Source: a virus. From it: a DNA stretch of 64,000 bases. Location: positions 64,001 through 128,000 of the IMG/VR virus record IMGVR_UViG_3300026488_000013; one strand, given 5' to 3'. A model generated the notes under the pieces. It was not told where the DNA came from. It was given only the letters and a program-made list of their open reading frames with translations, and did no database searches. This document shows, one piece after another, positions 49,643-61,760 of the stretch; within the stretch, counting starts at the first letter, position 1; each line of letters opens with the position of its first letter. The translations under genes and the position numbers were made by a program.

Positions 49643-52135
49643 TTACATAAATATCTTATCAAATGCACTTTCAACATATGTATCTTTTGTTTCAGTTAAC
49701 ATATTTCTAAGTGTCCGCTTTGAAGGTTCGTATAGAAATGCCAATATAGGAGATAATCTTTCAGATGCCTTGGGTAAGGGCAACTTCACAAACTTTGACA
49801 AATCTAATTCGTGGAGCTGGACATTATTATTGTGAATAAAGTATCTTAAGGTTCTATTTATATCGTCAACATCTTGCTCCGTTTTTGATTCGTTAACTTC
49901 TGTATCATTATCCAATTCTATATCTTCTTCTTGTTCTATTTCATTTTCTTCTTTCAAGAACCATAACGCACTCAATATAGTTTCAATCATTACAGATTTA
50001 ATAAGTTCTATCCCCAATAAAGTATCTGTTATTTCATCATATGCAGTAAATATATCTTTATCTATCATTTTGGATTTTATTATTTTTTCAATATTAACAA
50101 TTTTTGTAACAATATCGTCGTTTACCAATTTACCATTTCCTTTTACTTTAAATTTTATTATTCCATTTTCACCTATCTTAACGTCTATTAATTCTATTCT
50201 ATAATCATACCCATTCTCCTCTAGGAATTTGTTTACTTCATTTATCAACTGTTGAGGGGTATATTCTTTATTATGGATTTCGATATACCCGTCATCGGTA
50301 TTAAGTTCGATTTTGTATTTTTCTAATATTTCGTTGGGTATCTTGATTATCGCACGGCCGGATGTATGGAATGTGCGTAATATAAGTTGAGTAAACCTTT
50401 CAGTTATATATTGGATTGATAACATTCCCAGCTGTTTTGATTTTATGGATTCGTATCCTCCGCATTTTTTACATACTTTAAATCCAGGAAGTTTGCAGGT
50501 TATAGGGCTTCTTAATAGTATTTCTTTACCAATTATACTTTCGTAGTTATTTTTTGTTATTAAAATCTCTCTATTTAATTCTTCATCCTTGTAATATCTT
50601 CCTATCAAGGATTTGGCATGAACTTCATTTTTTACCTTTATTTTAAAATATTTATCAGTCCCGCAATCTTCCGTATCTTCATCAAACATTATAAATGATA
50701 GATTGTATAAACCTGTCCTTTGGAGAAATCCAGAGCGTGGCGTTTGAACCATTTTGTCAATCTCTCCTTTTCTTGCACCGTGTGCAGACATAAATAATTC
50801 TTTTTTTGTTAAACCTTTATTTAATGGATGTCTTACCGGTTCGGATTGAACTATATTTTTTGCATCCGCAAGAAAACCTTTCGTATATATTGTCTGTTCA
50901 ATTTGGTCTCTGGACGCTCTGGCCCCCGATTGATATATTTTCCAAAGTTCCGTATCTTTCTTTTCCATTTCTTTAAAAACTATTTCGGAATATTTATTTA
51001 AAAGATATAACCCAAATATTGGCTCGTTCGGAATGTTGTTTAATATCTTTTCCACTTCATCTTTGTTGGGGGTTATATAATCGTCCAACGTTAATTTTGG
51101 TGCAATTTTCGAATACGAAAATTCTGATAATACTAACATTATTTCGTGAAACAAATCTAAATATCTCCTACCAAATTTTTCCAAATCTTTATCTTCATAA
51201 AGTTTTTCTTCCTTGTTTAAATATTCGATTATTACTTCGTTCACAATTCTTACCTTTTTCTTATTTATATCAGTTTCCTTTAGATAAAGCTTTTTATTAA
51301 ACACTCTATAATTCAAGTAAACCAACCCATACGGTAATGTTATATTTTGATTTTTTATTCTTACTGCATACTTTCTTACATCCTCTTTAAACAGAATAAT
51401 TGGGTTGGGTTTAAAATCCTCAATCGAATCTATTTCAATTATTTTTTCAATATATTTCGTTGTCGATAACTGATTTAGTGCATATAAATATTCATGGCGT
51501 AATTTGTGTAAAAAATCATCATTTCTGTGGTATCTCAAGAATGTGGTTGCATGAATTCTCTTATTAAATATGTCTTGTTTTGCTTCAACAGTATTTATTG
51601 CATACTGTGCCATTGTGTCCTGCACAACTATATCATTTGCTACAAATGTGAAATTCTTATCCAGTGTCATGTCATATGCTGTTCCTTTTCCAGAATATCT
51701 TATTTCAATATCAGTTATAGGTATCCGTTTTACTTTATTATTTGGTAAAACTTTGATAAAGTATAGGGATTTCTTAATTTGGAAAGGCATATTTAAAATT
51801 TCTACAGGAGATATTTTTTCAAACTCGTCCAGCTCTATATTATAAACAATCAGCGAGTGGTCTCCAGATGCTTTAAATGGTTGAAATCTATTTCGTTTAT
51901 CTTTTATTTCGTAAAGGTCTAAGTTTTCATGGACAGAGAACTCAATTATTTTTGCTCTTTCAATTTTTCCAGTTTCCATATTAAGCGATTTTGTAAACAT
52001 ATCTTTCATAGGTTTATATTTGATTACTTTGACTCCATCGTTTCTTACATATTCATCAATTTTGATAAAAAATTCTTCTAGAAATTCTTTAACACCAACC
52101 ATTTTCTTCATAATTCTATCATATCCATAAATCAA
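49643..52135 (-). CDS. rpoC: RNA polymerase beta' C-terminal half fused to an N-terminal split-intein C-fragment (likely start ATG 52111)
   Basis: After the intein: TMAQY (follows NADFDGD in RpoC), SGARAS, GLT..LFMSAHGARKG..D...TPRSGFLQR (bridge helix), EDCGT, RSPITC..VCKKC, ERFTQLILRTFHTSG (trigger loop). Confidence 0.92.
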   Translation of the reverse strand: MIYGYDRIMKKMVGVKEFLEEFFIKIDEYVRNDGVKVIKYKPMKDMFTKSLNMETGKIERAKIIEFSVHENLDLYEIKDKRNRFQPFKASGDHSLIVYNIELDEFEKISPVEILNMPFQIKKSLYFIKVLPNNKVKRIPITDIEIRYSGKGTAYDMTLDKNFTFVANDIVVQDTMAQYAINTVEAKQDIFNKRIHATTFLRYHRNDDFLHKLRHEYLYALNQLSTTKYIEKIIEIDSIEDFKPNPIILFKEDVRKYAVRIKNQNITLPYGLVYLNYRVFNKKLYLKETDINKKKVRIVNEVIIEYLNKEEKLYEDKDLEKFGRRYLDLFHEIMLVLSEFSYSKIAPKLTLDDYITPNKDEVEKILNNIPNEPIFGLYLLNKYSEIVFKEMEKKDTELWKIYQSGARASRDQIEQTIYTKGFLADAKNIVQSEPVRHPLNKGLTKKELFMSAHGARKGEIDKMVQTPRSGFLQRTGLYNLSFIMFDEDTEDCGTDKYFKIKVKNEVHAKSLIGRYYKDEELNREILITKNNYESIIGKEILLRSPITCKLPGFKVCKKCGGYESIKSKQLGMLSIQYITERFTQLILRTFHTSGRAIIKIPNEILEKYKIELNTDDGYIEIHNKEYTPQQLINEVNKFLEENGYDYRIELIDVKIGENGIIKFKVKGNGKLVNDDIVTKIVNIEKIIKSKMIDKDIFTAYDEITDTLLGIELIKSVMIETILSALWFLKEENEIEQEEDIELDNDTEVNESKTEQDVDDINRTLRYFIHNNNVQLHELDLSKFVKLPLPKASERLSPILAFLYEPSKRTLRNMLTETKDTYVESAFDKIFM
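51617..52135 (-). mobile_element. Split intein C-fragment (large, lacks block A; ends Gln-Asp, Thr at +1)
   Basis: SLNMETGKIERAKI, block B ASGDHSL, block F AYDMTLDKNFTFVAND, block G IVVQD|T; an in-frame TGA lies upstream. Confidence 0.8.
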
Positions 52136-52190
52136 GTCAAATGTGAGAAATCATAATGTTTTAAAAAATAAAACCAAAACAAGACTTTTG

Positions 52191-54218
52191 CTATTTTGCG
52201 ATTTCATTAAAAATTTGTCTTTTTGTATTCAAGATTCTACAAATCTTTTCGTCTATAGTATCTTTTGCAATCAAATAGTATATTAATACCGTATCCGATT
52301 TCTGTGATATTCTATGTATTCTATCCTCCGCCTGCTCTAAATCCTGTGGGTTCCACCACAATTCTACAAACAACGATGTATCAGCCGCAGTGAGAGTTAT
52401 TCCTTCTTTTGCGGCCTTTAAAGACAATACTATAATTTTATGCTCAGGATTATTTTGAAATTTATCTATTATTTGTTTTCTTTCTTCCGGGGGCGTATCC
52501 CCGGTTATTTTTAATGGTTTTAATCTACCAAGTTGTTTGTCACTTACTATTTCCTCATATAACCTTTTCTGAACCTCCTTATGATATGCAAAAACCACCA
52601 ATTTAGAATTAGGATATTCCGCAAAATAATTTCGTATCCAATCTATAGCATATTTAGTTTTTATTTCTCCTATTTTCATCCACAATTTATTATATAATAT
52701 CAAGAATATTTCAGGATACTTCTGTGCTATATAATCCATTGCATTCTGAACATCTGTTATATATGAGGGTAGGTATGCACTGGGTCTAATTTCTAATAGT
52801 AGATTTTTTATTTTATCAACGGAATTATAATTTTGTATCTTAAATTGCTCGTATTCTTTTTTATCTTCATCCGATAATTCAACCCAAATAGTTTTAACAA
52901 GTTTATCCGGTAATTGTTTTAATACTTGTTTTTTTGTTCTTCTAATCATTATCGTTGTTCTCAATTTCATATTTATGTCATCTAACATTCTGGAGCCTAA
53001 TATTTTCCAATAACCTCCACGCCCTTTTCGTATGAATTCCATTATCAAATATCTTTGTCTAAATTCCGTTATCGTATCAGCATAATATTTTAAAGTGTCC
53101 GTTATTTCCAGTAATGGTATTAATTCTTCAGGATTGTTTTGAATAGGCGTTCCTGTTATGAGAATTTTTTTATCTATTAATTTTGACAACTCTAATACCG
53201 ATTTTGTTCTTTTAGAGTTTCTATTCTTCAAATAATGAGCTTCATCGGCTATTAACAGATTAAATTTATGTTTCTTCAATAAATCCTTCCAGTATTGTAT
53301 TATGTCGTAATTTATTATTACGAATTTTTTGTTTTTAAATGTTTGCAACCCGTGATAAAACCCGCTCAATGCCGGGTTGGTTCCTTTAAGAATAAGTATA
53401 TCTGTTGAAGGTATTTTAAAGAATTTTTGTATTTCTCTTTTCCAGTTTTCTTTTAATATAGCGGGGGTTATTATTAAAACTGGAAATGTTTTTGTTTTAA
53501 TAGTCCATATTAAAGCTTGAAGAGTTTTTCCGACACCCATTTGGTCTGCCAATAGCACAGAATTATATTCTTTCATTTTCTTATGTATTAGTTTTACACC
53601 GACGCACTGAAATGGAAATAATTTATCTCCACTGGGGAGTATTTTTAAGGGATAACTTTCATCTTTACATTTTTTACTAGAAACTGCGGCGGATTTTTTA
53701 TATTCGTCTAGCAATTTTTCCATAACCAATTCTATCGTGTTTCTAATATCATCATCTAACCACTTTTGTTCTAAAACCAATCTGTAAGTTTTATATGTTA
53801 TTGGCAATTCAATATAACTATCTCGATAGTTATAATAATAATTTTTCCCATTGATAATATAATCCCATATACTTTTCAATTCATCTGTATATTTCAATAC
53901 TCTGGCAAGCTGGGCAGGTGTTAGATTTTTCAATCTTAAAAACATTTTTTCAGTATCAAGTTCCACATTCCTATCCATCTTCAACTCCTCTATTGATGGT
54001 AATTTAATAACACTAAAATTAAATTTGGAAATGAGAAATTTCAAATTTTCGTATTCTTTTTGTGTATAGAGATATATAAGCCACTTCTTTCCTTTTTTAC
54101 CAAAATAAGTATGACTAAACAAGTTTCTTATATTGTTATTAATTTCATCTAAATATTTATTCAACTTTATTGTGAAAATTTTATTTCCAACATACTCTAC
54201 TACACCGGTGGCACTCAT
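52191..54218 (-). CDS. SNF2-family (HARP/SMARCAL1-like) helicase/annealing ATPase
   Basis: LADQMGVGKT, DEAH, TGTPIQN, IRRTK, EGITLTAA, WNP..QAEDRIHRISQ. Confidence 0.93.
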   Translation of the reverse strand: MSATGVVEYVGNKIFTIKLNKYLDEINNNIRNLFSHTYFGKKGKKWLIYLYTQKEYENLKFLISKFNFSVIKLPSIEELKMDRNVELDTEKMFLRLKNLTPAQLARVLKYTDELKSIWDYIINGKNYYYNYRDSYIELPITYKTYRLVLEQKWLDDDIRNTIELVMEKLLDEYKKSAAVSSKKCKDESYPLKILPSGDKLFPFQCVGVKLIHKKMKEYNSVLLADQMGVGKTLQALIWTIKTKTFPVLIITPAILKENWKREIQKFFKIPSTDILILKGTNPALSGFYHGLQTFKNKKFVIINYDIIQYWKDLLKKHKFNLLIADEAHYLKNRNSKRTKSVLELSKLIDKKILITGTPIQNNPEELIPLLEITDTLKYYADTITEFRQRYLIMEFIRKGRGGYWKILGSRMLDDINMKLRTTIMIRRTKKQVLKQLPDKLVKTIWVELSDEDKKEYEQFKIQNYNSVDKIKNLLLEIRPSAYLPSYITDVQNAMDYIAQKYPEIFLILYNKLWMKIGEIKTKYAIDWIRNYFAEYPNSKLVVFAYHKEVQKRLYEEIVSDKQLGRLKPLKITGDTPPEERKQIIDKFQNNPEHKIIVLSLKAAKEGITLTAADTSLFVELWWNPQDLEQAEDRIHRISQKSDTVLIYYLIAKDTIDEKICRILNTKRQIFNEIAK

Positions 54219-54245: not shown

Positions 54246-56963
54246 TTAAATTATTTCCAAGTCCGATATATCCATATCAACATATTCATCTTGTTTAAAC
54301 TCTTTTCTAATCAATTCTTTAATATGAGGGAATAACAAAAATTTCCTTATCGTTTTATCATAATAATTAATCAACAATTTGCCAGTTTCAGTATTGGTTA
54401 AATTATTTTGACCTGTTATATTATTTAAATTAATTTCAAATATTTCTTTCTTAATATCCCTAAAGAAAATATCTGCGGCGGATTTTATCTTAAAGTAATA
54501 ATAGACCATTGCATAAATAACTATTGGAACAAGTCTTCTTATCAACAATTCTATCAATCCGTATTCGTTAATATTTTTATCCATTGCTAATTCATTATAA
54601 AATTTCTCTGTGATTATTATTTTGGTGCCTTTTCTACCTGCTCGGCGGATTGCGATATATTCGTTATATTCCATTCCTTTAAGAACAGATTTAACTATGT
54701 TCTTAGATATTACTTTTTTATATCCAAACTTACCCCTTAATTCCGTATAAAAATCCTTTTGTTTAATATAGAATTCTACATTTCCTTTTTCAGTTAATTC
54801 TTCCATCAAATATTGGAAAATCGTGGATGTTGTTATCCAAAATTTTCTTACCATCCAAAGATGCTCTTTAGAGAAATAATAATCTATTCCCAACAACTTT
54901 CCATTTTCCTTAATTAATTTCGTTAACTCATTATTTGTTTCACCAATTATATCTTCATACGCACGTTCTAATGTTTCCTTCAAATATTCATAAGTAACCT
55001 CAACTTTATCGATTTGAATATCCGGTTCAATATCTTTCCATTCATACTTTTTCATGTCGTTTGAATACAATTCCCTAATCTCGCTATATACATCATCTTC
55101 ATTTCTTATTATTTCATACTTCGAACCTAAATATTTTAATATCGCAGTTTTAATATTAGTATCAAAATTGCTTCCTTTTTTAATTATTTCCCTGGTAACT
55201 ATCCTCATTATACCACTGCGGTCGGTCATTCCATATCTAATTTTTTTAATTTCGATAATACCGTATTCTGATAATTTTCTTATAAACCATCTTATTTCCT
55301 TGTTATCTTTCTTGTGATTCAAAATCTCCGCCGCAAGTCTATTCATAAATTCAGTTTTATTTATTTCATGTTTATCCACATCTGTTCTAAACTCTTTATC
55401 TAACTCACTCAATATAATATTAAATATTTGTTCATACGTCTTTACAAAATTGTTTATACTCCCAATAAAGCTGGATAAGTTTTTAAATATCCCAATGTTA
55501 TTATTATCAATAATAGATAAAGGGGTCGCCTTTCTCCAAGCAATTTCAATATCCCTGTCTAAGTTATTTTTATCTGGTAGATACTCTCTTATCAGTTCAT
55601 CATATATATCAAAATCCAAATCTAATGCTTTAGCAAACGCCGCAGCGGGCAACATCACATTTTTAAATCTTTCCCTATTATACATGTCGGATAATTTCGC
55701 AATATATGTTTCCAAAGATTTTTTTCTTATATCCTCGAAATTTATTTCATTATTGTATTTAACATTAACCAATTTTCCAAATTTATCTTTTATTTCCTTA
55801 TGTTCATTTAGAACTTTTATAACCGAAACAATTATTTCGTTTAAAGAGTTAAATTTTGTATTAGCCAATTTTTCACGAATATAGTTTTCTACATTAAATT
55901 CCGAAATTATTTTTTCAAGAATTAGCAATTTCGATTTATTGTAGGTTGCGAATTCGTGATTAAATTTTTTATTTTCACCATTGTAGAATGAAAATAAAAA
56001 ATTTTTTATTTTTCTTATCCTTATTTCGGCTCTTTTGGTTAAAAATTCATTATTTAATTTTAATTCCTCATTTACTATTTTATTAAATTCTTTTTTTATA
56101 TTTTTTTCTAATTTGGATTTTTTATTTTTTAATATTGAAAAGAATATATCAAACTTTCCATTATTCTTCCTTAAAATTAATAAATTAATTTTATCTCTAA
56201 AGTTGTCCAATATATTGGAATAAATTTTTATAAGGCTTAGTTTTTCACTTTTATTGAATTGATTTCTTTCAATAAAACATCCCATCATTTTTTCTCCTTT
56301 TTCATTAATCACCACGGTGCCGGGTTGCCAAATTAAATTCACAGGATTATCTGCAAAATGCATATCCAACTTTAACCCAAATGCATTAAAATAAATTTCC
56401 GAAATTTTATAAATCGAATTAACTAATTTTTTTATTTTTTTTCTATGAATATTGTTTTTAAATTTTATTCCGTTCATAAATACATATAACCTCAAATTCC
56501 CAGATTTACTTTTTTCTATCCAATAATTTTTTTCTTTCAGGTTTAATATTGATTCTGCAAAAAATTTAGTTGGGGCATATGCCTTTTCCACGGCGCTATC
56601 TATATCAAAAATTAAACAATCAAAATAATCTATTTCGTCCCATTTATTTTTTAACTTAATTTTATTTTTCCAAGTTTCAGGTTTTAACGTCTTACCCTTC
56701 AAAAATAAATATTCATATAGTTTTTTATTTATCTTCTTTCCAAAATTAAACCCATTTAAAATTCCAAACAGCTTTTTAATACCTTTGTTCCTGTTATTTC
56801 TAAAATTAATGGCTCTTAGCAAAATAGCCCAAAACAATGAATCCAATATAGATATTATATTCTTACTAATATATCCTGTAATAAATCCTGTTGTATCTTG
56901 AATCAATCTTAACATCGCCGCACCCTCCTTTTTCTTTTCTTGTTGTTTCCTCATTTTCTCCAC
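54246..56963 (-). CDS. Large putative replication/origin-binding protein (AEP primase-like N-terminus, PriCT-like helix, winged-helix-like C-terminus)
   Basis: LIFDID and EKSKSGNLRLYV resemble AEP motifs I and II (His replaced by Arg); helical ERFKNVMLPAA...IEIAW; wHTH-like segments (VKSVLKGMEYNEYIAIRRAGRKGTKI). Confidence 0.45.
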   Translation of the reverse strand: MEKMRKQQEKKKEGAAMLRLIQDTTGFITGYISKNIISILDSLFWAILLRAINFRNNRNKGIKKLFGILNGFNFGKKINKKLYEYLFLKGKTLKPETWKNKIKLKNKWDEIDYFDCLIFDIDSAVEKAYAPTKFFAESILNLKEKNYWIEKSKSGNLRLYVFMNGIKFKNNIHRKKIKKLVNSIYKISEIYFNAFGLKLDMHFADNPVNLIWQPGTVVINEKGEKMMGCFIERNQFNKSEKLSLIKIYSNILDNFRDKINLLILRKNNGKFDIFFSILKNKKSKLEKNIKKEFNKIVNEELKLNNEFLTKRAEIRIRKIKNFLFSFYNGENKKFNHEFATYNKSKLLILEKIISEFNVENYIREKLANTKFNSLNEIIVSVIKVLNEHKEIKDKFGKLVNVKYNNEINFEDIRKKSLETYIAKLSDMYNRERFKNVMLPAAAFAKALDLDFDIYDELIREYLPDKNNLDRDIEIAWRKATPLSIIDNNNIGIFKNLSSFIGSINNFVKTYEQIFNIILSELDKEFRTDVDKHEINKTEFMNRLAAEILNHKKDNKEIRWFIRKLSEYGIIEIKKIRYGMTDRSGIMRIVTREIIKKGSNFDTNIKTAILKYLGSKYEIIRNEDDVYSEIRELYSNDMKKYEWKDIEPDIQIDKVEVTYEYLKETLERAYEDIIGETNNELTKLIKENGKLLGIDYYFSKEHLWMVRKFWITTSTIFQYLMEELTEKGNVEFYIKQKDFYTELRGKFGYKKVISKNIVKSVLKGMEYNEYIAIRRAGRKGTKIIITEKFYNELAMDKNINEYGLIELLIRRLVPIVIYAMVYYYFKIKSAADIFFRDIKKEIFEINLNNITGQNNLTNTETGKLLINYYDKTIRKFLLFPHIKELIRKEFKQDEYVDMDISDLEII

Positions 56964-59902: not shown

Positions 59903-60613
59903 TCACATTTTATACTTTAAATTTCTTATTGCATCGATTAATTCTATTACAAAACTCAAATTTCTATAGTATGGAACCTCTAGGATTTTATCTAATTCGC
60001 CATCTTTAATATCATATCCAAATATTTTATTTATTGCTCTTTTTATTATATATTTGGCTATATTGCTGCTTGTTATATCATCCTCATACTCGAATTCATA
60101 TATTATATCTTTATAATTTTCAATTTCATTTACTAGAATATCTTTCAAAATCTCTATAATTCTGTTATAAAATCTTTCATCTATAATTCTCTTCATCAAT
60201 GATTTTATTTTGAAAATTCCCTCGGTATGAGGGGATAATAATATTTTTGTAATATTTGTAGGAATATTTCCGAATTTTCTGTTAAAATACTCTTCAATCA
60301 AATACTCGAACTCTTTTCTAAGATACTCATTTTCAACCCAATTTATGTATTTGAGTTCCACTATAAGCTCCATTATATCTTTTCCATTTTTATCTTCTAT
60401 AATTTCTTTATCAGATATGATATAAATGTTAAAGTCATTGACTATTGGTGTGTCCTTTTCTATATTTATTATTGGCTCTAAATATATAGCATATATCTTT
60501 GTATTATTATCTGTTTTATATTTTTTATCTATTTTTGTCACGATTTTGACGGTTCTAGCCATCATAACCGATATATTTCCGTAGAAATATGAAAAAAAAT
60601 TAATATAAAGCAT
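59903..60613 (-). CDS. Hypothetical protein (start probably ~60564)
   Basis: ORF with no polymerase motif C. Confidence 0.55.
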   Translation of the reverse strand: MLYINFFSYFYGNISVMMARTVKIVTKIDKKYKTDNNTKIYAIYLEPIINIEKDTPIVNDFNIYIISDKEIIEDKNGKDIMELIVELKYINWVENEYLRKEFEYLIEEYFNRKFGNIPTNITKILLSPHTEGIFKIKSLMKRIIDERFYNRIIEILKDILVNEIENYKDIIYEFEYEDDITSSNIAKYIIKRAINKIFGYDIKDGELDKILEVPYYRNLSFVIELIDAIRNLKYKM

Positions 60614-61760
60614 TTATTCTCTTCTCCAGGTTTTTGTTTAAATATTTCTGAACACCGGCCTGGGCGAATTTAATCATGAATTTTGAATTCATTGTTATTG
60701 GACTTCCTATATTTTTATCGTTTAGGATAAATGTAGGAACAATATTTACACCATATGATACCGCATTAAGTTGAGGTTTTACAACCTTTCCTTGTAGTTT
60801 ATCATAATATGAATATTTGAAGTTATCCCCTTTCTCATACCAATATGCGGAGGTTTTCTTTAGTTGTTTCCGCAAACTCATATAATCATCTATAAATCCA
60901 ACCATTATACCTACTTGGTTGTCGTGTTTTTCAAATAGTGCCCCACTAAATGTTAGAACATATTTTTTCAAATATTTCTCTATAAATTCATCGATAGTTA
61001 TTTCCCTGATTTTAATCTTATTACTGGTCGGATTATCAACTACTATTACTCTAAACTTTTCCCATTCTTTATCACTTTTTATACCTAAATATAGTTTTAG
61101 GTATTCTTTATATTTTCTAATATTACCCTTCGCTACAATCCAAAAGTATATCAATTTATTTGTTTCATCATCCTTATATGACAAAAGATGTGTATAGTTT
61201 TCTAGAAATGGTATTAATCTGGTTTTTAATACAATGTAATCCTCACCGTTCATTATTCCATCTAAAGTATATTCGGCAAAAACATACATGAGTTCATCCA
61301 ATATTTTTAAAGTGAATTTTAGATTGTTTTCTATAATCTCTTTTTTCTTGTTTGGCTTATACCATTCTACAAACGATAAAATTAGTCGATTAAATGATTC
61401 TTTAAACGAATTTTTAAGATTTAAAATCTTAGATTTTAAGACCGTTTTCTTCTTAGGTTTATCTGTGTTGACAAATTCTTGCACATATTTAGAGAACTTC
61501 CTTAATGCATCGATAAGCTTATACGTTTGGGGAGGATATACTCTGGCCCGAAGAGTAGTGAAGTCTATATTAAACATTTTTACTGTAGAAGGATACATGG
61601 ATGTGTTGTGAACAAGAATATAATAATCAGATTTTGGGTCTTTGGCAAAAAATCTTTCAGTATCTTCTACAGAAATATCATATACATAATCATCCTCAAT
61701 TTCTATAATTTCTATGCTTTCAATTTCGTCAATAAACCAAACTCTTCTTCTTTCTATCAT
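60600..61760 (-). CDS. Family B DNA polymerase middle fragment (motifs A-B) with N-terminal split-intein C-fragment
   Basis: HN|TSMYPS..FNI (motif A remainder), SGALF, motif B KPQLNAVSYG; no DTDS; RBS AGGGG. Confidence 0.88.
   Translation of the reverse strand: MIERRRVWFIDEIESIEIIEIEDDYVYDISVEDTERFFAKDPKSDYYILVHNTSMYPSTVKMFNIDFTTLRARVYPPQTYKLIDALRKFSKYVQEFVNTDKPKKKTVLKSKILNLKNSFKESFNRLILSFVEWYKPNKKKEIIENNLKFTLKILDELMYVFAEYTLDGIMNGEDYIVLKTRLIPFLENYTHLLSYKDDETNKLIYFWIVAKGNIRKYKEYLKLYLGIKSDKEWEKFRVIVVDNPTSNKIKIREITIDEFIEKYLKKYVLTFSGALFEKHDNQVGIMVGFIDDYMSLRKQLKKTSAYWYEKGDNFKYSYYDKLQGKVVKPQLNAVSYGVNIVPTFILNDKNIGSPITMNSKFMIKFAQAGVQKYLNKNLEKRINALY
61605..61760 (-). mobile_element. Split intein C-fragment (52 aa, His-Asn end, Thr at +1)
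   Basis: IESIEII...VYDISVEDTERFFA...ILVHN|T: blocks F and G. Confidence 0.92.

Follow-up and report, generated by a model that had tools for sequence, protein, structure and literature searches.

A predicted atypically split, cysteine-less intein ending in aspartate at the catalytic loop of a phage RNA polymerase

Results

The window analysed here is the whole stretch of 64,000 nucleotides (nt) covering positions 64001-128000 (G000:C1:64001-128000) of a 167-kb viral contig, IMG/VR record IMGVR_UViG_3300026488_000013, which is ~60% complete and has 28% G+C. A minus-strand gene of the window (49643..52135) encodes the C-terminal half of an RNA polymerase beta' subunit, headed by a long C-terminal intein fragment (IntC), and a second gene of the same contig, on the same strand and outside the window, encodes the N-terminal half (P0004), which ends in the catalytic motif of the polymerase followed by a tail of 24 amino acids (aa). 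The two genes probably carry a cysteine-less, Asp-terminated, atypically split intein of class 1 type, which would trans-splice to produce a full-length beta' subunit. With every needed residue present and conserved, the pair is best read as trans-splicing to a seamless beta'. The original prediction, made from the sequence of the window, had proposed an atypically split intein whose short N-terminal fragment (IntN) is encoded by a separate gene, right after the catalytic motif, and whose long IntC closes with Gln-Asp before a Thr at position +1. This proposal was supported: the N-half that it called for was found by genome search on the same contig, with the expected end of NADYDGD, a Ser, 23 further residues and a stop codon.

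The C-terminal half and its intein fragment

The open reading frame (ORF) of the C-half is open from a TTG codon (52133-52135), and an in-frame TGA lies at 52151-52153, leaving no room in the stretch 5' of the start (52112..52153, minus strand) for coding of an N-extein or of intein block A. The gene likely starts at ATG 52111 or at ATG 52102. The former is the protein database start, giving the 822-aa product P0006, while the relative P0007 aligns from the second Met (ATG 52102). Directly upstream on the same strand is an unrelated gene for an SNF2-family helicase (window 52191..54218; Pfam SNF2-rel_dom, E 1e-41, and Helicase_C), so the IntC gene stands alone; both the stop codon and the helicase are as they had been described from the sequence.

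IntC occupies positions 51617..52111 (minus strand), which is 165 aa from ATG 52111 or 162 aa from ATG 52102 (residues 9-173 of the TTG-started ORF), and it includes all of an intein but block A. Several searches identified it as such. The Pfam family Intein_splicing (PF14890) matched at profile positions 18-153 of 155 with an E value of 1.8e-4, a match that falls short of the curated cut-off, and phmmer aligned IntC with the Ssp DnaB mini-intein over residues 27-154, to its end (E 0.003), placing FVANDIVV-QD over the FVANDIIV-HN of DnaB. In the AlphaFold2 model of IntC, most 10-residue blocks in residues 10-150 had a mean predicted local distance difference test value (pLDDT) of 70-90, and the top 30 PDB matches of the model were all inteins, the best being 9HTH, the cysteine-less Aes123 PolB1 intein (Foldseek E 7.5e-8, 21% identity).

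Ten relatives from outside this genome, all unsplit or typically split, supplied their first 125 intein residues for a hidden Markov model (HMM) of the intein allele. When the 4023 stop-to-stop ORFs of the contig were all searched with this model, the C-half ORF was matched with an E value of 6.4e-27, over HMM positions 22-122 of 123 only. Since the match begins only at position 22, block A is truly absent from IntC, in agreement with the earlier description of a beta' ORF starting with ~165 aa of intein that lacks this block.

The motifs of the fragment can be followed along the minus strand. The block B His (51857..51859) is found in SGDH as His85 of P0006, and is invariant in the allele alignment; the Thr position of the TxxH motif is occupied by Ser. 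A conserved His (in SVHEN) is located 24 residues before it, preceded by Val, and is a candidate for the His of the NX motif. The block F Asp (51671..51673) is part of YDMT, and the YDxT motif was present in 8/8 relatives. The last two intein codons, CAG GAC (51617..51622), encode Gln-Asp at the place of the usual penultimate His and terminal Asn, and the next codon, ACA (51614..51616), encodes Thr+1, which opens the C-extein and presumably acts as the second nucleophile. The VVQD end before Thr, which lies over IVHN of DnaB, and the lack of any Cys in the IntC fragment were thus correctly read from the sequence. The C-extein (49643..51616, stop codon included) comprises the C-terminal 657 aa of beta', as judged from Pfam RNA_pol_Rpb1_5 (E 4.5e-15) and PHROG RNA polymerase families. 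It opens with TMAQY and aligns directly after the DFDGD of the unsplit homologue P0087.

A promoter-like site was found at 52113..52140 (minus strand), ending 2 nt before ATG 52111, with TTGACT, a 16-nt spacer and TAGAAT with an upstream TG. It is a sigma-70-like consensus match only, of a kind whose count was no higher than in shuffled sequence; if it were used, translation would more likely proceed from ATG 52102 on a nearly leaderless mRNA.

The N-terminal half and its tail

P0004 was located by a whole-contig search with Pfam Rpb1_2 and is a beta' N-half of 648 aa encoded at G000:C1:37465-39411 (minus strand). The Rpb1_2 match ends at profile position 145 of 166, where the catalytic motif NADYDGD is reached; the Ser and the 23 further residues of the tail (residues 625-648) then run to a TAA stop codon. 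The idea that the Asp closing IntC might itself be the third catalytic Asp, also raised in the original prediction, has to be discarded, because P0004 has all three (DYDGD) and the terminal Asp of IntC aligns with the Asn of the His-Asn pair.

The tail contains no Cys. It aligns to the very end of the closest relative, P0070, with equal length and about one third identity, and was recognised by its position, its Ser, its length, its strand pattern and this alignment. The 72 nt that encode it (L010:2468-2539, minus strand) have 40% G+C, versus 28% for the rest of the gene and the genome, and no such contrast was seen in relatives; the G+C-richer tail could represent a recent acquisition or a nuclease target. 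Intron read-through was considered as a source of the tail and rejected, as the relatives differ in nucleotides yet keep the Ser and the strand pattern. Two genomes encode this Ser (Ser1) by AGC and two others by TCA or TCG, and its presence in both codon families argues for selection on the amino acid and not on RNA.

A gene for a 671-aa protein (L010:329-2341, minus strand; G000:C1:35329-37341) lies 120 nt after the IntN gene and matches PHROG HNH endonuclease and homing endonuclease families (E ~1e-8). A homologue with 53% identity follows the N-half of the closest relative, P0070 (L094), and a different, mutually homologous gene of 582-612 aa follows P0068 and P0069 (L095 and L096). This layout resembles that of 'fractured genes', with the C-half moved away.

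Fit of the two halves

The P0004 and P0006 genes are 74,231 nt apart, both on the minus strand. When aligned to the unsplit P0087 (1017 aa), residues 414-627 of P0004 correspond to 255-419 and residues 165-812 of P0006 to 416-1009 (E 9e-52), and the exteins meet immediately after the DFDGD of P0087, with nothing missing and nothing duplicated. This alignment confirms the earlier statement that the extein resumes at TMAQY right after the catalytic motif. The exteins sum to 624 + 657 = 1281 aa, versus 1285 aa for the unsplit homologue P0079. The intein fragments are complementary in the same manner: the ~21 N-terminal HMM positions that IntC lacks compare with a P0004 tail of 24 aa, and in a MAFFT alignment the two fragments run collinearly with contiguous relatives through the break, where the tail forms the first two strands and IntC starts at the next short helix.

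Complex prediction for residues 1-200 of P0006 (IntC and the extein start) with residues 585-648 of P0004 gave a score of 0.56, the best of 3 controls being 0.00, and its runs shared at least 64% of contacts, with a partner pLDDT of at least 48. In the calibration, 58 of 80 solved complexes attained the mark, compared with 2 of 110 mismatched pairs; scores of 0.60 or less accounted for only 7 of these 80 and for both passing mismatches, and the counts hold only roughly here, as a custom alignment was used. The modelled complex weakly backs an association of IntN with IntC. Since split-intein complexes have already been solved, the pass may reflect likeness to them.

The order of the genes bears on how the halves could be joined. 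An intron linking the C-half ORF to a contiguous N-half, which the original prediction had kept in mind, is contradicted: on the minus strand the C-half is upstream of the N-half in transcription, so RNA splicing in cis is impossible, and Rfam detected no intron family near either gene end. An artefact or joining at the RNA level in general, be it by misassembly, an intron or RNA trans-splicing to a contiguous N-half, is highly improbable. Group I introns at this motif in related genes would favour it, with P0005 and several metagenomic genes stopping within or right behind DFDG(D) (see below), but at the protein level a single intein block, no more and no less, is what is missing, an IntC-first relative occurs among different neighbours, and another contig has both halves with six genes between them.

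Distribution and conservation of the allele

HMMER, run with P0004 on 1.8 billion representative proteins, returned 669 hits, the best 150 of which showed a single insertion point in four architectures. A full-size intein with a LAGLIDADG endonuclease domain (Pfam LAGLIDADG_3, E 9e-16) is present in P0184, where it ends in FVFD before Cys+1. Contiguous mini-inteins are found in P0102, with an FIYD end, Ser+1 and a continuing extein, and in P0081 and P0096, with a VIVQD end and Ser+1. Six clusters are typically split, with an IntN of ~130 aa, all stopping at one position; the one checked, P0113, stops inside its own contig, and 225 nt on, P0218 opens with a 60-aa IntC that has a VSVFD end and Cys+1. 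The atypically split form accounts for at least 18 clusters, whose tails are 15-45 aa long, all but one being at least 24 aa, and begin with Ser (16), Thr (1) or Cys (1). The single 15-aa tail is the one that starts with Cys, and may be cut short.

P0081 and P0096 have a tandem arrangement, in which a tail of 25-28 aa that begins with Ser directly adjoins the end of the full mini-intein (VIVQD) and runs to a stop codon. It looks as if a second intein had entered the same site of an already split gene, the tail resembling other atypical IntN tails.

The terminal residue was Asp in 8/8 C-termini of the allele, never Asn; it was followed in all eight by Thr, Ser or Cys at +1 and then Met, and preceded by Gln, Tyr or Phe, never by His. 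Since some beta' genes are intact apart from a contiguous, Asp-ended insert, the allele works with its Asp terminus, which belongs to the whole allele and not to this copy alone. The block B His, the block F YDxT, the terminal Asp and the +1 Thr/Ser/Cys are invariant. Bacterial intein-like (BIL) domains are Hint domains of variable proteins, away from conserved sites and mostly lacking a +1 nucleophile. Assignment to them was rejected on the basis of the location at the most conserved beta' site, the conserved +1 nucleophile and the endonuclease-bearing relatives.

Both halves were also found together on another contig and within single samples. In one 134-kb contig (L099), P0071, with a 27-aa tail, and P0217 are encoded 6 kb apart with six genes between them; P0217 has 795 aa and opens with a 190-aa IntC, which ends in VQD followed by TM. 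P0007, which is 51% identical to P0006, is likewise IntC-first and lies on its own contig with different neighbours, and its sample (3300003981) also contains the N-half P0068, with a 24-aa Ser tail. P0008 and P0070 co-occur in sample 3300041960. The split layout thus recurs in at least three other phage lineages.

This recurrence speaks against a decaying remnant, that is, a beta' copy broken by intein or endonuclease invasion in a phage that uses another polymerase. Such an origin would account for the nuclease-like gene that immediately follows IntN (PHROG HNH/homing endonuclease, E 1e-8), for halves 74 kb apart and for the second beta' N paralogue, P0005. It is nonetheless very unlikely: both ORFs are intact, IntC and extein are equally conserved at ~53% identity to the same-architecture relative (52.8% and 52.6%, respectively, between P0006 and P0007), and no other Rpb1_5-type C-half was found on the contig, which is ~60% complete.

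Searches in other collections gave few relatives. GenBank phages had no tblastn match for P0004 or IntC, and only distant beta' matches for P0001. IMG/VR and metagenome pattern scans with P0001, P0004 and the IntC alignment found no relatives, and with the N-half alignment generic beta'/Rpb1 loci only. In a word-index protein search, the C-half had two relatives; the N-half, and IntC taken alone, had none.

Proposed splicing mechanism

Class 1 inteins splice through an N-X acyl shift, transesterification to the +1 residue, cyclisation of the terminal residue and an X-N shift. For the present pair, we infer from the residues at hand a scheme in which P0004 would contribute the N-extein (residues 1-624) and the 24-aa IntN, with Ser1 first and the first two strands of the fold, and the window gene the 165-aa IntC and the 657-aa C-extein. 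The IntN tail would dock into IntC and complete the Hint fold, Ser1 would undergo an N-O acyl shift, Thr+1 would attack the resulting ester, and the terminal Asp, instead of Asn, would cyclise and release the intein. An O-N shift would then leave a seamless DYDGD-TMAQY junction in a beta' subunit of 1281 aa. The element would be a selfish intein placed directly after the Mg-binding NADYDGD loop, where selection would preserve splicing, since a polymerase whose catalytic loop retained the Hint domain should be inactive.

With regard to class 1 inteins, the pair has the Hint fold, an in-frame position at a conserved host site, Ser1, Thr+1 and the block B His. With regard to atypical splits, it has the 24-aa tail on P0004 and the 165-aa head on P0006, in separate genes.

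In an alternative that the original prediction had also named, the Hint fragments would reassociate and act as a clasp, holding the beta' halves together non-covalently with no peptide bond formed. The beta' subunit of jumbo phages is often split and assembled without ligation, as in the phiKZ type, the terminal His-Asn is replaced here by Gln-Asp, and the fold and complex predictions speak only to fragment complementation. A clasp, however, needs none of the conserved Ser1 in both codon families, the +1 Thr/Ser/Cys, the block B His, the block F Asp or the terminal Asp. Moreover, the contiguous members P0102 and P0184, which share the Asp terminus, must excise from intact beta' genes, and a folded domain of ~190 aa, if retained just after the Mg-binding loop and before the next strand, should obstruct the active centre. 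With conserved nucleophiles and contiguous relatives both speaking against it, the clasp is a minority rival that we regard as unlikely.

Other observations count against trans-splicing of the pair. The terminal His-Asn of class 1 inteins is replaced by Gln-Asp, the block F His position is Phe and the block B Thr is Ser, so the cyclisation step may be slow or run differently. The P0004 tail was not retrieved among the contig ORFs by an HMM built on other tails of the IntN type; at 24 aa, it is too short and divergent for statistical homology. The complex prediction adds weak support only. The contig being ~60% complete, another beta' C-half could exist, and trans-splicing of this pair is predicted from sequence. 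As to the terminus, inteins with a C-terminal Asp or Gln splice via cyclisation of that residue (Amitai, Dassa and Pietrokovski 2004, reviewed in PMC4031507), and ~5% of functional inteins are without the penultimate His (PMC4031507). A terminus other than His-Asn is therefore a known functional variant (PMC4031507), compatible with class 1 membership.

A distinct splicing regime, for instance a metal- or pH-dependent C-terminal cleavage, could also be indicated by the Asp fixed in every architecture, in combination with the Asp at -1 from the Mg-binding triad. In the atypically split form, whose halves lie in separate modules of the genome, it could serve as a post-translational switch timing polymerase assembly. 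We consider this doubtful. The original prediction also suggested that splicing at the loop could gate phage transcription, a conjecture, and that the intein is probably thermostable, for which no support was found in this genome of 28% G+C.

Paralogue P0005 and other breaks at the catalytic loop

The contig encodes a second beta' N paralogue, P0005, at L011:2330-4348 and L011:889-1116 (both minus strand; within G000:C1:5001-10000). It has a contiguous insert of 160 aa between GAD and CDG, with a KKQ end and Cys+1, which matches the same allele HMM (E 1.1e-4). BLASTP of P0005 against P0006 was not significant, the link between them being the allele HMM, and a single-sequence fold of the insert had a mean pLDDT of 33. 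P0005 was considered as the partner of P0006 and rejected, since its insert is complete and is followed downstream by an extein of its own.

The P0005 frame runs into ~1.3 kb of G+C-richer sequence with no long ORF on that strand, and downstream a 75-codon frame resumes with a DQINIYAVH-type continuation. The region looks like an intron stacked beside an intein; Rfam gave no intron match in the P0005 gap. Other beta' genes (P0074, P0085 and P0209, and those at loci L031, L073, L079, L084 and L093) stop inside or a few codons after DFDG(D), and some of these stops share a read-through peptide (..LPSLNP..NC..) that is also found after the CDG of P0005. This suggests related group I introns at the same DFDG(D) hotspot.

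Genome context

The RNA polymerase genes of the contig are two of beta' N-type, one of beta' C-type and two of beta-type, and these are hallmarks of a jumbo phage. The C-half gene is located in a replication and nucleotide-metabolism block with genes for the SNF2 helicase, an exonuclease, a DnaB-like helicase, the small subunit of ribonucleotide reductase and PolB. Upstream of the SNF2 helicase gene is a 905-aa ORF (window 54246-56963, minus strand) with no Pfam or PHROG family, and in L099 a family-less 942-aa gene adjoins the IntC-bearing beta' gene, which suggests a conserved neighbour of the IntC gene.

The same genome has a second split intein, which is typically split and lies in PolB (window 60600-61760 and L012:5381-6913, the latter at G000:C1:129381-130913; both minus strand). 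The PolB N-part (L012:5381-6913) terminates in an IntN that matches Pfam Intein_splicing at positions 8-94 (E 2.8e-8). The window gene starts with a short IntC, whose HN is followed by TSMYPS within polymerase motif A. The nucleophiles of this PolB intein are Ser1 and Thr+1.

Discussion

The literature searched, on inteins of phage and jumbo-phage RNA polymerases and on atypically split inteins, reported no intein in the beta' DFDGD loop. The atypical split, the cysteine-less intein and the Asp terminus are each known singly; their combination at the beta' loop is undescribed in that literature. If trans-splicing occurs as proposed, the phage may depend on it for the catalytic loop of an RNA polymerase of its own. 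As regards intein biology, the allele is a large one at the single most conserved site of multisubunit polymerases, and its natural series of endonuclease-bearing, mini, typically split and atypically split forms is useful for studying the origin of split inteins. It could also be of interest for engineering, as a source of cysteine-free split inteins with a short IntN (tails of 24-45 aa) and an Asp terminus. Inteins of this kind are in demand for semisynthetic labelling in an oxidising environment, and the characterised cysteine-less split inteins are still very few (PMC10189870).

The gene set is like that of phiKZ-type jumbo phages, with two beta' N-type genes, beta genes and a beta' subunit encoded in pieces. 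The split beta' subunits of the phiKZ type assemble non-covalently, and their break is downstream of the catalytic loop. Here, in contrast, the beta' subunit is broken at an intein, which would ligate the exteins.

The AceL-TerL, GOS-TerL and VidaL inteins, atypically split and found in metagenomes, have an IntN of ~16-37 aa encoded by separate phage genes; they begin with Cys1, reside in the terminase large subunit and have the canonical Asn terminus. The present intein is like them in its short IntN, long IntC and separate genes. These three inteins are refs 20, 27 and 28 in PMC10189870. PolB16 OarG, from a sheep-gut metagenome (Pasch et al. 2023), is atypically split with Ser1 and Ser+1, trans-splices in vitro, and was counted in 2023 as only the second cysteine-less split intein active at ambient temperature (PMC10189870). 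It shares with the present intein a very short IntN (15 aa in PolB16 OarG), a long IntC (168 aa there), Ser1, an oxygen nucleophile at +1, the absence of Cys at the junctions and a phage-like metagenomic source. PolB16 OarG, however, interrupts a family B DNA polymerase and is described as having typical class 1 motifs, while the intein described here has an IntN of 24 aa, Thr+1 and Gln-Asp, in the Mg-binding loop of beta'. The NX-motif His of PolB16 OarG is preceded by Arg or Lys (PMC10189870), whereas the candidate His of IntC is preceded by Val. Aes123 PolB1 (PDB 9HTH; PMC11923092), the best structural match, is similarly cysteine-less with Ser1 and oxyester chemistry, but is typically split, belongs to a DNA polymerase and has a terminal Asn (N159A in the crystal form).

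In 'fractured genes', a free-standing homing endonuclease gene lies between the halves of a split intein (Dassa et al. 2009, PMC2677866, cited in PMC6892783). The nuclease-like gene directly after the IntN gene, present also in the closest relative, is a shared trait, whereas IntC is 74 kb away (6 kb and six genes in L099) and the break is near the intein N-terminus and not at the usual endonuclease insertion point. Finally, the non-Asn terminus is shared with the known Asp- or Gln-terminated inteins; those are contiguous and occur in ribonucleotide reductase or polymerase II, whereas in the beta' allele the Asp is fixed across all forms, including the split ones.

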